Shown here in pieces: positions 1 to 58,250 of a DNA stretch of 64,000 nucleotides. Both the position numbers and the translations under genes were made by a program. How positions within the stretch are numbered: the first letter of the stretch is position 1; each line of letters starts with the position of its first letter. The notes under the pieces are model-generated. The model worked only from the letters and a program-made list of their open reading frames with translations, was not told where the DNA came from and made no database searches. Source of the stretch: Escherichia coli (GTDB lineage Bacteria; Pseudomonadota; Gammaproteobacteria; Enterobacterales; Enterobacteriaceae); assembly GCF_001677475.2 (NCBI RefSeq), contig NZ_CP015229.1, one strand, 5' to 3'.

Positions 1-537
1 GCATTAGACGGGCAACCGCAGAGCTGGCTTACCAGTTTCCGCTGGGAGAATGGCAACGGCATGTTGACGCAACTCAACCGCCAGTTCCCGACCATTAGCC
101 TGTTAGACATTGGCGCGATTTTAAAACAGGTCGGTCAGGTGCTGGAGCAGGTAAGTCGGGCGCTGGAAGTGATGGTGGTGCTGGTCACCGCCTGCGGTAT
201 GTTGCTGTTGCTGGCGCAGGTGCAGGTGGGAATGCGTCAGCGCCATCAGGAGCTGGTGGTGTGGCGCACTCTCGGTGCGGGCAAAAAACTGCTGCGCACC
301 ACGTTGTGGTGTGAGTTCGCCATGCTCGGGTTTGTTTCTGGCCTGGTGGCCGCAATTGGTGCGGAAACGGCGCTGGCAGTGTTGCAGGCGAAAGTGTTTG
401 ATTTCCCGTGGGAGCCAGACTGGCGATTGTGGATTGTTCTGCCGTGCAGCGGTGCGCTGCTGCTGTCGCTTTGCGGCGGATGGCTGGGCGCGCGACTGGT
501 TAAGGGTAAGGCGCTGTTCAGGCAGTTTGCGGGATGA
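1..537 (+). CDS. ybbP: ABC-transporter permease YbbP, C-terminal part (5' end lies upstream of the window)
   Basis: Open frame runs from nt 1 with no stop until 535-537; track ORF 61..537 is its tail; hydrophobic membrane-protein composition; position upstream of mnmH as in K-12. Confidence 0.8.
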   Translation, partial: ALDGQPQSWLTSFRWENGNGMLTQLNRQFPTISLLDIGAILKQVGQVLEQVSRALEVMVVLVTACGMLLLLAQVQVGMRQRHQELVVWRTLGAGKKLLRTTLWCEFAMLGFVSGLVAAIGAETALAVLQAKVFDFPWEPDWRLWIVLPCSGALLLSLCGGWLGARLVKGKALFRQFAG

Positions 538-681: not shown

Positions 682-708
682 GAAACCAACTGTCATGTCG
701 GTTTTTTT
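682..708. terminator. Bidirectional intrinsic terminator hairpin (A-tract / stem / T-tract)
   Basis: gaaaccaac-tgtcat-gtcggttttttt; stem flanked by an A-run upstream and T7 downstream; near-identical to the hairpin at 1161..1189. Confidence 0.6.
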
Positions 709-754
709 AAAGGCCGAAGGTGGTAAACCTTCGGCCTTAGCTACGTTTCCTCAG

Positions 755-838
755 TTATTCAATAAACTGACGGATCAGTTCCAGCAGCGCGATTAGCGCC
801 TTAAGAACGATGAGAACTTTATCGAGAAAAGTTTTCAT
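755..838 (-). CDS. Candidate type I toxin: 27-aa amphipathic peptide MKTFLDKVLIVLKALIALLELIRQFIE (DinQ/TisB-like)
   Basis: ATG at 838-836 (minus), TAA at 757-755; SD AAGGGAG 6 nt upstream; SD lies in perfect palindrome ctcccttaagggag (845..858); peptide matches my recollection of DinQ (shared ALIALLELIR core). Too short for the ORF track. Confidence 0.5.
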   Translation of the reverse strand: MKTFLDKVLIVLKALIALLELIRQFIE

Positions 839-844
839 CCGTTG

Positions 845-858
845 CTCCCTTAAGGGAG
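845..858 (-). promoter_or_regulatory. RBS-sequestering palindrome upstream of the candidate toxin ORF
   Basis: ctcccttaagggag is its own reverse complement; a 5-bp stem / 4-nt loop would occlude the GGGAG Shine-Dalgarno. Confidence 0.5.
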
Positions 859-1063
859 AAAGACAATCACAGCTTACCCTTACGTTGCCTGTAACTATGA
901 TTTTCTTCATGTGCTAGATGAGGACTGCCTCTCTCCAAATTAGAGCACCAGAATCAGCACCACCTGTATCCTGACCAGGACTTAAAAGTACTTTTCCGCA
1001 CTGCGGTAATCCCTTGAGGCAGTATCACTACTAGCGTCGGGATTGTATCGCCAGCATAGCTGT

Positions 1064-1092
1064 TTGAATATGTAGGCATCCTGACTTATAAT
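1064..1092 (+). promoter_or_regulatory. Sigma70-like promoter for the candidate antitoxin sRNA
   Basis: TTGAAT (1064-1069), 17-bp spacer, perfect TATAAT (1087-1092). Confidence 0.5.
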
Positions 1093-1098
1093 TCACTT

Positions 1099-1189
1099 GC
1101 TAGATGAGGACTGTTTCATTTCTGCCCGGAACCACCAAGTCTTGGGCGGAAAAAAAATAAAAAAACCGACTGTCATGTCGGTTTTTTTA
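1099..1189 (+). ncRNA. Candidate antitoxin sRNA (~90 nt), Agr/IstR-like, divergent from the toxin gene
   Basis: Predicted start ~7 nt after the -10; 5' end contains tgctagatgaggactg (1098..1113), identical to 912..927 and so complementary to the minus-strand toxin 5' UTR; ends at the terminator hairpin 1161..1189. Confidence 0.45.
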
Positions 1190-1251
1190 TATCTGTATTC
1201 TGGTGCAACCATTCTGTTCTCACGACAATCGCCGTTTCAGAATACCGCCCA

Positions 1252-57030: not shown

Positions 57031-57472
57031 TTATGTTGGCGTTTTCTATTCAGTATAGAAGTGGGAGCGACTGGGCGAGATGCGGAAGTTCTGGAATGTT
57101 TCTTTTTTTGGTGATGGTGAACTGATTGTGACTGAAGAAGTTTGGCTACTTTTGCAATGTGACAAGTTATGGCAGAGCTGGCTGGTGGCGAAGAATTTTG
57201 ACGATTGAGGCATGCAGAAAAAAACGGGTTCAGCTTCAGTTGATCAAATGAGGAGTGAGAAGTCTGAAACAGGACTAACTGTATAAATAAACAGCTATTT
57301 TGCTGAGGAAGGGTAAGATAACGGCGGGTGCCTGAAGCTTTCCGGTTTCAGGTTTACTCTGAGGTCTGGAAAGATGAAGCCCCAGGAGATATTTCTATCA
57401 ACCCTGGGGCTGCCACTCCAAACCCGAACAATTTGGATGGTAGTCCCTTCTTCGCATGGAGGCAATATAAAC

Positions 57473-57625
57473 ATGCTGACGAAATATGCCCTTGTGGCAG
57501 TCATAGTGCTGTGTTTGACGGTACTGGGATTTACGCTTCTGGTCGGAGACTCGCTGTGTGAGTTTACGGTGAAGGAACGTAATATTGAGTTTAAGGCTGT
57601 TCTCGCTTACGAACCGAAGAAGTAG
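57473..57625 (+). CDS. hokE: Hok-family host-killing toxin, copy 1 (50 aa)
   Basis: [53 protein letters not shown] ggagg; in this copy an upstream ORF is fused in frame (track ORF 57374..57625). Confidence 0.9.
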
Positions 57626-57976
57626 CCGTTGTGCGGGGAGTAATCCCCGCATATCCGGTTGTCAGGTCAGGGTGGTAAGGCACCTGCTTTACACTTTCGC
57701 CCGCGGTCAGCAATGGCTGCGGGCGATGTCGTTTTAAGGGCAATGATCAGTTTTGCCAACAGAAGTCCGAAACAGGATTCACTGTATAAATAAACAGCTA
57801 TTTTGCTGAGGAAGGGTAAGATAACGGCGGGTGCCTGAAGCTTTCCGGTTTCAGGTTAACTCTGAGGTCTGGAAAGATGAAGCCCCAGGATGATATTTCT
57901 ATCAACCCTGGGGCTACCTACCCAAACCTGAACAATTTGGATGGTAGTCCCTTCTTCGCATGGAGGCAATATAAAC

Positions 57977-58129
57977 ATGCTGACGAAATATGCCCTTGTG
58001 GCAGTCATAGTGCTGTGTTTAACGGTGCTGGGATTTACGCTTCTGGTCGGAGACTCGCTGTGTGAGTTTACGGTGAAGGAACGTAATATTGAGTTTAAGG
58101 CTGTTCTCGCTTACGAACCGAAGAAGTAG
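57977..58129 (+). CDS. hokE: Hok-family host-killing toxin, copy 2 (50 aa)
   Basis: Identical 50-aa Hok; overlapping mok frame intact (track ORF 57877..58065). Confidence 0.9.
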
Positions 58130-58250
58130 CCGTTGTGCGGGGAGTAATCCCCGCATATCCGGTTGTCAGGTCAGGATGGTAAGGCACCTGCTTTACACTT
58201 TCGCCCGTGGTCAGTGATGGCTGCGGGCGAATCGTACCAGATGTTGTCAA

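Follow-up and report, generated by a model that had tools for sequence, protein, structure and literature searches.

Paired terminator hairpins around a predicted DinQ/AgrB-family toxin–antitoxin module between ybbP and mnmH of Escherichia coli, and their probable role in loss of the module

The spacer between ybbP and mnmH in the 64,000-nt stretch of Escherichia coli DNA analyzed here (contig NZ_CP015229.1; the window, to whose positions and + and − strands all coordinates refer) holds what is, judged from its sequence, a second, chromosomal type I toxin–antitoxin module of the DinQ/AgrB family, a paralogue of dinQ-agrAB. The module is flanked by two near-identical stem-loops, hairpin 1 on the ybbP side and hairpin 2 on the mnmH side. 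Hairpin 2 is probably the working terminator of the antitoxin small RNA (sRNA), and hairpin 1 a decaying copy of it that enables deletion of the module. In this explanation, a 27-aa membrane toxin of the DinQ family would be read on the − strand, starting near 1034 and ending near 710 or 683, and an AgrB-family sRNA of ~90 nt would be read divergently on the + strand (1100–1190), its 5′ end pairing with a box in the toxin 5′ untranslated region (UTR). Hairpin 2 would be the sRNA's own terminator, acting in both directions and shared with mnmH. Hairpin 1 would be a secondary 34–37-nt copy of hairpin 2 that directly adjoins the T-rich side of a GC-rich hairpin, presumably a relic of a duplicated sRNA 3′ end or of a whole duplicated module, which then decayed under relaxed constraint, the pair of repeats permitting deletion of the module. 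Transcript ends, termination activity and the route of duplication are what we infer here.

The repeat search detected a 27-nt direct repeat in two copies, 683–709 and 1163–1189, identical at 26 of 27 positions (96%), and alignment in this way recovered the two near-identical hairpins that the original prediction had placed on either side of the module. The sole mismatch, A688 in hairpin 1 and G1168 in hairpin 2, lies in the 5′ stem arm. The second string quoted in that prediction is indeed a 28-nt segment spanning 1161–1188, its end having been put one nucleotide too far, at 1189. Gapped local alignment lengthened the repeat to 673–709 and 1156–1189, i.e., to 34–37 nt comprising AATAAA, an A-tract, the stem arm ACC(A/G)AC, the loop TGTCAT, the stem arm GTCGGT, T7 and A. 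Outside this extended repeat, homology of the flanks was not significant in shuffle tests (left flanks, p = 0.39–0.43; right flanks, p = 0.55).

The repeat is confined to this locus. Its 20-nt core occurs at two sites only in the window with up to three mismatches allowed, and none is expected from shuffled sequences. A 55-nt query around hairpin 2 matched 1,330 of 5,426 complete E. coli genomes, all of them module carriers, at a median of two places each, and none of these matches lay on a plasmid; genomes with a single copy amount to roughly ten or fewer of the 5,426, judged from the place counts. A query running from hairpin 1 to the toxin gene matched 1,328 genomes, and all listed matches begin at query base 1, so hairpin 1 accompanies the toxin region in the listed carriers. 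The exact hairpin was present in three contigs among 100,044 species-representative genomes (two from Escherichia and one from an AT-rich Enterobacterales metagenome-assembled genome, MAG), and a phage collection gave no match. A genome-wide dispersed repeat resembling repetitive extragenic palindromes (REP) or bacterial interspersed mosaic elements (BIME) is ruled out by the median of two places per genome, the restriction to carriers and the three contigs among the species genomes; the earlier view that the hairpins belong to this locus has thus survived the comparison with other E. coli genomes. On these figures, roughly one in four sequenced E. coli genomes would carry a second DinQ/AgrB toxin–antitoxin locus.

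Judged by their sequences, the two hairpins are true paralogues, copies of one another, because they share the loop and the A-tract and are exclusive to this locus; identity of the stem alone would be weak evidence. When a looser pattern was applied (the same stem, any loop, T7 and ATATCTG), about 30 unrelated sequence families were found in marine, freshwater and soil metagenomes (L025–L094), in the form CCGAC-loop-GTCGGTTTTTTTATATCTG; 8 of the 70 loci in the metagenome scan were relevant, and the rest were mostly unrelated convergent terminators. The stem and the first flanking bases appear, on this comparison, to be convergent terminator features, pointing to a sequence space of terminators that is strongly convergent or constrained, and similarity between terminators should not be taken as homology without evidence from loop and context. 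One of the metagenome terminator families comprised more than 20 contigs with a GC content of about 0.57–0.60. The AT-rich Enterobacterales MAG (L011, 3433–3560) carries an identical stem-loop, AACCGACTGTCATGTCGGTTTTTTT, immediately 3′ of a tRNA gene, and its 3′ flank is somewhat similar too; since the terminator stem is so generic, this likeness is probably due to convergence.

Hairpin 2 has perfect 14-nt arms (1157–1170/1177–1190, A- and T-tracts included), was scored as terminator-like on both strands with 14 pairs by the terminator scan, and folds with −17.5 and −16.9 (also −16.4) kcal/mol, i.e., about −17 on either strand, with z about −8. It lies 62 nt beyond the mnmH stop. The terminators of agrA and agrB in strain K-12 have the structure AAAAAACCGAC-GCAAA-GTCGGTTTTTTT, with the same arms as hairpin 2 and another loop. 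When anchored by position, the 12 nt following the T-tract of hairpin 2 resemble the flanks of AgrB genes (9/12 for agrA, 8/12 for the plasmid gene and 10/12 for L015, an outgroup contig), a likeness that is significant in this anchored form and is taken as suggestive; free local alignment of this right flank with other AgrB flanks gave no significant result. Homology of hairpin 2 with AgrB terminators follows from the full-length context, which points to hairpin 2 as the rho-independent terminator of an AgrB-type sRNA. Because a perfect palindrome flanked by A7/T7 faces the convergent mnmH, it would most likely terminate both the sRNA and mnmH. The description of both hairpins as A-tract/stem/T-tract bidirectional terminators therefore suits hairpin 2, called on both strands, and fails for hairpin 1, called on the − strand only. 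The A-run just 5′ of the hairpin 2 stem, within the sRNA (1150–1165), varies in length between strains, being A8-T-A7 in the window, A6-T-A7 in most of the rest, A6-T-A8 in NCTC9066 and A5-T-A7 in L035, a metagenome contig.

The GC-rich hairpin reported by the toxin stop was likewise confirmed (710–738), with perfect 12-bp arms at 710–721 and 727–738 (100% complementary) and folding energies of −20.7 (−) and −22.6 (+) kcal/mol. It aligns with the K-12 dinQ terminator hairpin adjoining the gor stop and was present in all plasmid homologues examined. In the toxin-mRNA sense it is followed only by UUU and then A7, which is a poor U-tract. By its conservation, this hairpin is the predicted toxin-mRNA terminator throughout the family.

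Assignment of the module itself is based on both of its genes. The toxin peptide scored 40.9 bits with NCBIfam NF041472 toxin_DinQ (cutoff 30) and 24.5 bits with the DqlB model, which is under the cutoff of 35, and the open reading frame (ORF) 838–755 is annotated by PGAP as "dinQ" (WP_349808740.1, "damage-inducible type I toxin DinQ") in RefSeq genomes matching the spacer. The + strand at 1100–1190 matches Rfam RF02891 AgrB over the full model (1–84) with 50.3 bits (gathering threshold 40; E = 2e-7); the RefSeq tables of the matching genomes examined contain no ncRNA row for this locus. The module is collinear with the K-12 gor-dinQ-agrA-agrB-arsR spacer in its GC hairpin, toxin ORF, Shine-Dalgarno (SD) palindrome, target box and toxin promoter region, and window 1064–1200 can be aligned to agrB from its promoter through body and terminator to the adjacent flank. 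These two family matches and the collinearity bear out the relationship to dinQ/agrAB that had been proposed for the locus.

The sRNA gene lies 5′ of the toxin mRNA, divergent from it and non-overlapping, and the 5′ end of the sRNA is complementary to a stretch of the toxin 5′ UTR. The direct repeat underlying this complementarity (906–927 and 1092–1113) is identical at 20 of 22 positions, and the duplex of sRNA 1100–1122 with toxin 5′ UTR 914–936 contains 14 Watson–Crick pairs (23 nt with four G·U pairs and one mismatch); RNAduplex gave −74 kcal/mol for the sRNA and the toxin 5′ UTR against −33 ± 3 for shuffled sequences. The −10 element of the sRNA promoter is conserved in L015 and L035. The −10 element assigned to the toxin promoter (TACAAT, 1042–1047) was not called by the consensus promoter scan. 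By analogy with dinQ, whose 5′ UTR sequesters its SD sequence (Kristiansen 2016; PMC5066626), the palindrome at 842–861 may form an SD-sequestering stem-loop. No LexA box (CTG-N10-CAG) was found on either strand of the module; the K-12 LexA box CTGGATAATCATACAG aligns to a CAGTATCACTACTAG-type sequence in the toxin promoter region (990–1060). The label "damage-inducible toxin DinQ" is probably misleading for the ybbP-mnmH copy, because its toxin promoter is without the LexA box to which dinQ owes its name. Literature searches brought up no paper linking dinQ or dql to ybbP-mnmH or reporting a transcript in this spacer. At least the part from hairpin 1 to the toxin gene, with an annotated dinQ, is present in the enteropathogenic strain EPEC E2348/69, at about 486.4 kb of NC_011601.1. 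The annotation of strain Z1323HEC0067 places a transposase gene of the IS481 family between toxin gene and mnmH (L004, 3723–4769), and the match to the window stops at ~1064, between the two divergent promoters.

Hairpin 1 is a much weaker structure. Only three A residues precede it, an A·C mismatch interrupts its stem on the + strand (G·U at the same position on the − strand), it folds with −6.3 (+) and −8.5 (−) kcal/mol, and the terminator scan scored it as terminator-like on the − strand only. The + strand mismatch was seen in every E. coli copy examined. Neither K-12 dinQ nor any of five plasmid modules has a counterpart of hairpin 1; there the GC hairpin is preceded only by T-rich TTTT(A)TTAAAGG; in the fifth plasmid, neither of the two GC hairpins is adjoined by such a counterpart. 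Hairpin 1 therefore appears, by sequence, to be an addition peculiar to the ybbP-mnmH copy.

Two metagenome contigs, L035 and L072, contain the full module, with mnmH 93–94% identical and the module about 97% identical. Their toxin peptide is identical to that of the window, the ORF differing by two substitutions. In the L035 lineage, hairpin 1 reads AAACCGAC-TGTCAT-GCCGGTTTGTTAAAGG: the 5′ arm keeps G, another stem position has changed from T to C, which produces a different A·C mismatch on the + strand, and the + strand T-tract has degenerated to TTTGTT, looking like the family's TGTTAAAGG. Its folding energies are −6.6 and −9.9 kcal/mol. Between the window and L035, the hairpin 1 unit has 7 changes in 37 positions (18.9%) and its left flank 4 in 23 (17.4%), against 0 in 35 for the hairpin 2 unit, 0 in 29 for the GC hairpin, 2 in 84 for the toxin ORF, 4 in 196 for the 5′ UTR and 8 in 390 for the rest of the module (710–1099). 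The divergence of hairpin 1 differs from that of hairpin 2 with p = 0.012 (Fisher) and from that of the rest of the module (8/390) with p = 8e-5. As this divergence is close to that of its left flank and is far above that of hairpin 2, hairpin 1 seems to evolve like unconstrained DNA under relaxed constraint, with hairpin 2 and the GC hairpin apparently frozen. For transcription of the toxin mRNA, hairpin 1 would serve at most as a weak back-up terminator.

The loop TGTCAT is found in hairpins 1 and 2 of both E. coli and L035, and the loop of hairpin 2 in L015 differs. In the simplest history, hairpin 1 would have been copied from hairpin 2 after the split from L015 and before the split between E. 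coli and L035, a dating that is not firm, since hairpin 1 would in any case have gone with the deletion in L015. The end of the copy coincides exactly with the T-rich edge of the GC hairpin, a junction expected if an AgrB terminator had once been located directly upstream of a module. In plasmid NZ_CP022492.1, an AgrB terminator precedes the next GC hairpin by about 190 nt, and tandem plasmid arrays of this kind would provide, by analogy, a precedent for the duplication route; hairpin 1 may also have arisen by short patch duplication. A derivation of hairpin 1 from a 5′-truncated AgrB gene was considered and rejected: Rfam gave no AgrB match with 661–712 alone, and comparison of the left flank with the sRNA body gave p of about 0.4. 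The agrA/agrB repeats of K-12, to which the original prediction had likened the locus, are a 114-nt unit containing the whole sRNA gene, arranged in tandem on one side of dinQ and 88% identical. What stands of this comparison is that the hairpins are paralogous; only the 34–37 nt of the terminator are demonstrably copied as far as the sequence goes, the copy being on the opposite side of the toxin gene, with no second sRNA body or promoter, and this is not a gene duplication of the agrA/agrB type.

The clearest effect of the hairpin pair was seen when the locus was compared among genomes. In the empty state (A), represented by LF82 and JCM 20135, ...GTGCA is joined directly to CAGAAT..., so that 666–1238 and both hairpins are missing. 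In the solo-hairpin state (B), represented by LR-28, the left flank of hairpin 1 and its diagnostic A are combined with the right flank of hairpin 2; GF131 has a 234-nt spacer as in LR-28 and is probably also a solo-hairpin genome, judged from spacer length. An equivalent solo hairpin, with G, is present in the divergent Escherichia SCPM-O-B-8794, and its left flank matches the L035-type hairpin 1. Since this flank matches L035/L072, the structure would be a hairpin 1 × hairpin 2 recombinant of the L035 lineage, independent of the E. coli solos. The full module (state C) is found in the window, E1V33 and many others. In the toxin-dead state (C′), a 108-bp deletion (817–924) between GATGAGAACT (809–818, in the toxin ORF) and GATGAGGACT (917–926, in the target box) has removed the toxin start, the SD sequence and the target box, with both hairpins and the sRNA gene kept; ~190 of the 1,328 carriers show the shortened match, and the allele is present in L003, L088 and L091. 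In L091 (1–330), the place of ybbP ahead of the toxin-dead module is taken by a gyrB-like 3′ end and a REP element, probably through a chimeric assembly formed via REP sequences.

The orphan-sRNA state (D) was found in L015, a Logan contig (SRR31919996) with ~83% nucleotide identity in ybbP and mnmH and no toxin gene. Its AgrB-family gene (1222–1404; 47.9 bits) is placed so that the ybbP stop runs into the sRNA promoter, with TGA in the −35 region; the terminator shares the stem and differs in its loop, ATTCACTTT, and is followed by the same right flank. From hairpin 2 across the right flank and on into mnmH, L015 is collinear with state C, and not with state A. Because the outgroup is collinear with the module-bearing state, unlike state A, the empty sites are best read as secondary deletions, the module, or at least its sRNA half, being old at this site. 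Other outgroups were of no use: in Salmonella and Citrobacter mnmH has a different neighbour, and among the MnmH relatives P0005 was of the Rhs type, P0007 and P0010 lay on short contigs, and P0008 (L016) was an ordinary E. coli with the full module. The cluster members listed included no named E. albertii or E. fergusonii sequence.

The joining of the left flank of hairpin 1 to the right flank of hairpin 2 marks the solo hairpins as likely products of module deletion: the pair would recombine as direct repeats, delete the module and leave a solo hybrid hairpin, this being the clearest observed effect of the pair. The locus thereby presents a series of decay states of a chromosomal type I system, from the full module through the toxin-dead module with its sRNA, the orphan antitoxin and the solo hairpin to the clean deletion.

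Several points weigh against a decaying copy in a locus undergoing secondary deletion. The two stem changes in hairpin 1, G→A in E. coli and T→C in L035, both yield A·C on the + strand and G·U on the − strand. This retention of G·U pairing could mean selection for the hairpin in the toxin mRNA rather than pure decay, a point that is mildly suggestive, the chance of both changes keeping the pairing being one in four. A relic without any use might also be lost more often, yet hairpin 1 is present in all listed carriers. Recurrence of the stem, T7 and even ATATCTG in about 30 unrelated families makes stem identity weak evidence of homology. At the same time, homology to the sRNA body was not detected to the left of 673 (shuffle tests, p about 0.4; Rfam), and the polarity given by the outgroup depends on one short Logan contig, L015.

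Of the other explanations, the one nearest to the original prediction assumes that both hairpins are maintained as bidirectional terminators, insulating the module from ybbP (hairpin 1) and mnmH (hairpin 2), and that the duplication was selected for this purpose. Hairpin 2 is an excellent predicted two-way terminator, which makes insulation from mnmH credible, and hairpin 1, which in E. coli has T7 on its + strand, is positioned precisely between ybbP and the toxin gene's antisense side and occurs in every listed carrier. Insulation from ybbP is nevertheless poorly supported: the + strand of hairpin 1 has the A·C mismatch in all E. coli copies examined, at −6.3 kcal/mol, and is not called terminator-like; in L035 it combines a different A·C mismatch with the T-tract TTTGTT; its divergence is 19% against 0% for hairpin 2; and other family members manage without it. 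Selected insulation on both sides is accordingly considered unlikely. A second antisense contact has also been weighed, in which the tail of a read-through toxin mRNA, complementary over 27 nt to the sRNA terminator, would bind it through kissing loops (AUGACA/UGUCAU). The predicted 27-bp intermolecular duplex has −41 kcal/mol, read-through is plausible with only UUU and A7 after the GC hairpin, and both lineage-specific changes in hairpin 1 stay paired in the duplex via G·U. Such complementarity arises automatically, however, whenever the copies of a direct repeat are read from opposite strands; hairpin 1 diverges fast, the family works by pairing at the 5′ UTR and has no such site (PMC3567139, PMC5066626), and a toxin mRNA reaching 683 is an assumption of the model. 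This contact is quite improbable, and the combined idea that the duplicated terminator gives a 5′-UTR-targeting type I system a second, 3′-end contact and at the same time makes the module excisable would be rather improbable.

It is conceivable that a bidirectional terminator resident between ybbP and mnmH was duplicated when the module integrated, by target duplication or by Campbell-type integration with a circular module copy. The structure of the solo-hairpin genomes is exactly what an unoccupied site would show, and insertion with duplication yields the same junctions as deletion between repeats. Against this, hairpin 2 and its flank belong to the AgrB gene itself (the terminator lies within the Rfam model, the K-12 genes have the same arms, and the 12-nt flank is similar), and L015 already has an AgrB gene with the terminator stem and flank. 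Moreover, the solo hairpin of LR-28 pairs the derived A of hairpin 1 with the flank of hairpin 2, as a recent recombinant would; solo sites are rare (roughly ten or fewer of 5,426), and the empty sites have no hairpin at all. Resident duplication is highly improbable on these grounds, and for the solo sites deletion is favoured over target-site or Campbell-type integration by the sequences compared. Chance convergence of two unrelated terminators has a practically negligible probability: the CCGAC/GTCGG stem, T7 and ATATCTG did arise many times in unrelated bacteria, and the identical stem-loop recurs after a tRNA gene in the AT-rich Enterobacterales MAG, but the two hairpins share the same 6-nt loop, AATAAA and A-tract with 26/27 identity within 480 bp, and no E. 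coli genome has any other copy. A working hairpin 2 and a decaying hairpin 1 remain the preferred reading, and its elements are placed among their neighbours in Table 1.

Table 1 Features of the ybbP-mnmH spacer and its surroundings in the window
Feature	Position	Strand	Basis
3′ end of ybbP (ABC transporter permease), left neighbour	1–537	+	ORF 61–537; RefSeq annotation in matching genomes
REP/BIME-type palindromes 3′ of ybbP, outside the module	548–660	no strand	Inverted repeats; sub-threshold Rfam matches to naRNA4/ES036 (REP-derived)
573-bp segment present or absent as a whole between E. coli genomes, holding both hairpins and the whole module	666–1238	no strand	Comparison with LF82, JCM 20135 and L015
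Hairpin 1 unit	673–709	no strand	Stem-loop 683–704, loop TGTCAT, T7 at 702–708
GC-rich hairpin, predicted toxin-mRNA 3′ stem-loop/terminator conserved in the family	710–738	−	Perfect 12-bp arms; K-12 dinQ alignment
Toxin ORF, 27 aa, MKTFLDKVLIVLKALIALLELIRQFIE, DinQ family	755–838	−	ORF list, PGAP, NCBIfam
Palindrome CTCCCTTAAGGGAG containing the Shine-Dalgarno sequence	842–861	−	Inverted repeat; aligns with dinQ 5′ UTR
Target box in toxin 5′ UTR, complementary to sRNA 5′ end	914–936	−	Direct repeat 906–927 vs 1092–1113
Inferred −10 (TACAAT) of toxin promoter	1042–1047	−	Position homologous to dinQ promoter
Predicted sigma-70 promoter of sRNA, TTGAAT-17-TATAAT	1064–1092	+	Promoter scan, 10/12 matches
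Predicted AgrB-family antitoxin sRNA, ~90 nt	1100–1190	+	Rfam RF02891 match; alignment with K-12 agrA and agrB
Hairpin 2 unit, predicted terminator of sRNA (+) and mnmH (−)	1156–1190	both	Perfect arms; terminator scan on both strands
Right flank of sRNA gene, apparently ancient at the site	1191–1238	no strand	Collinear with outgroup L015 and with L035
mnmH (tRNA 2-selenouridine synthase), right neighbour, convergent with sRNA gene	1252–2346	−	ORF; RefSeq annotation

The REP/BIME-type palindromes are absent from JCM 20135 and L035. Elsewhere in the window, at 57279–58130, two tandem type I loci of the hok/sok type, 503 bp apart, were noticed between ybdK-like and entD-like genes. Each has a perfect LexA-box-like sequence, CTGTATAAATAAACAG (57279 and 57782), and a HokE-like ORF, with Rfam sok matches at 57326–57481 and 57829–57985 (84–87 bits).

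The closest known relative of the ybbP-mnmH module is the dinQ-agrA/agrB locus in the arsR-gor spacer of K-12 (Weel-Sneve 2013, PMC3567139; Kristiansen 2016, PMC5066626). The two share gene order and strands, the GC hairpin, a 27-aa toxin, a long 5′ UTR with the SD-sequestering stem, the target box and divergent promoters, and also the terminator stem AAAAAACCGAC/GTCGGTTTTTTT of AgrB-type sRNAs. They differ in site and in the number of sRNA genes (one in the ybbP-mnmH module, two in K-12), in the terminator loop (TGTCAT instead of GCAAA), and in the sRNA/target duplex, which is ~23 nt with G·U pairs in the former and 30/31 in the latter. K-12 dinQ has a LexA box at the aligned position and the ybbP-mnmH module has none, this box being a feature of dinQ itself and not of all dql members. 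An extra terminator copy beside the toxin-mRNA terminator exists only in the ybbP-mnmH module and not in K-12.

The dinQ-like (dql) gene family has been described on chromosomes and plasmids, with 14 dql genes (PMC5066626). Modules of the dqlA/dqlB-agrB type are homologous to the window over ~700–987 in 1,803 plasmids and have the same architecture with an AgrB-family sRNA, whereas the ybbP-mnmH peptide scores as DinQ proper and not as DqlB. The plasmid modules tend to undergo tandem duplication, both of sRNA genes and of entire modules; unlike the ybbP-mnmH module, the plasmid copies examined have no second terminator by the GC hairpin. The Salmonella IncFII plasmid NZ_CP022492.1 (L096, 900–2560) has two tandem dqlB modules with three and two AgrB copies, adjacent to a ccdA-like gene; the five AgrB matches of Rfam scored 54–68 bits.

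Bidirectional intrinsic terminators occur between convergent genes, and hairpin 2 would fit this type, as a perfect palindrome with A-tract and T-tract between the convergent sRNA gene and mnmH; the + strand of hairpin 1 does not. In the 3′-overlapping type I systems of Bacillus (bsrG/SR4 and relatives), the convergent RNAs share one terminator in cis. A likeness to these would exist only under the speculative assumption of complementary terminator hairpins with kissing loops, the complementarity in the ybbP-mnmH module being supplied in trans by a duplicated copy.

Among type I systems, orphan antitoxins and decaying chromosomal loci are known, e.g., OrzPmg in MG1655 (PMC11264685). The ybbP-mnmH locus resembles them in that L015 keeps only the AgrB-like gene and ~190 carriers are toxin-dead with the sRNA gene retained. 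Unlike them, it has an internal repeat that would add a route to clean loss of the whole module, analogous to the formation of solo long terminal repeats (LTRs); a duplicated terminator can, on this reading, serve as the recombination substrate for module loss.

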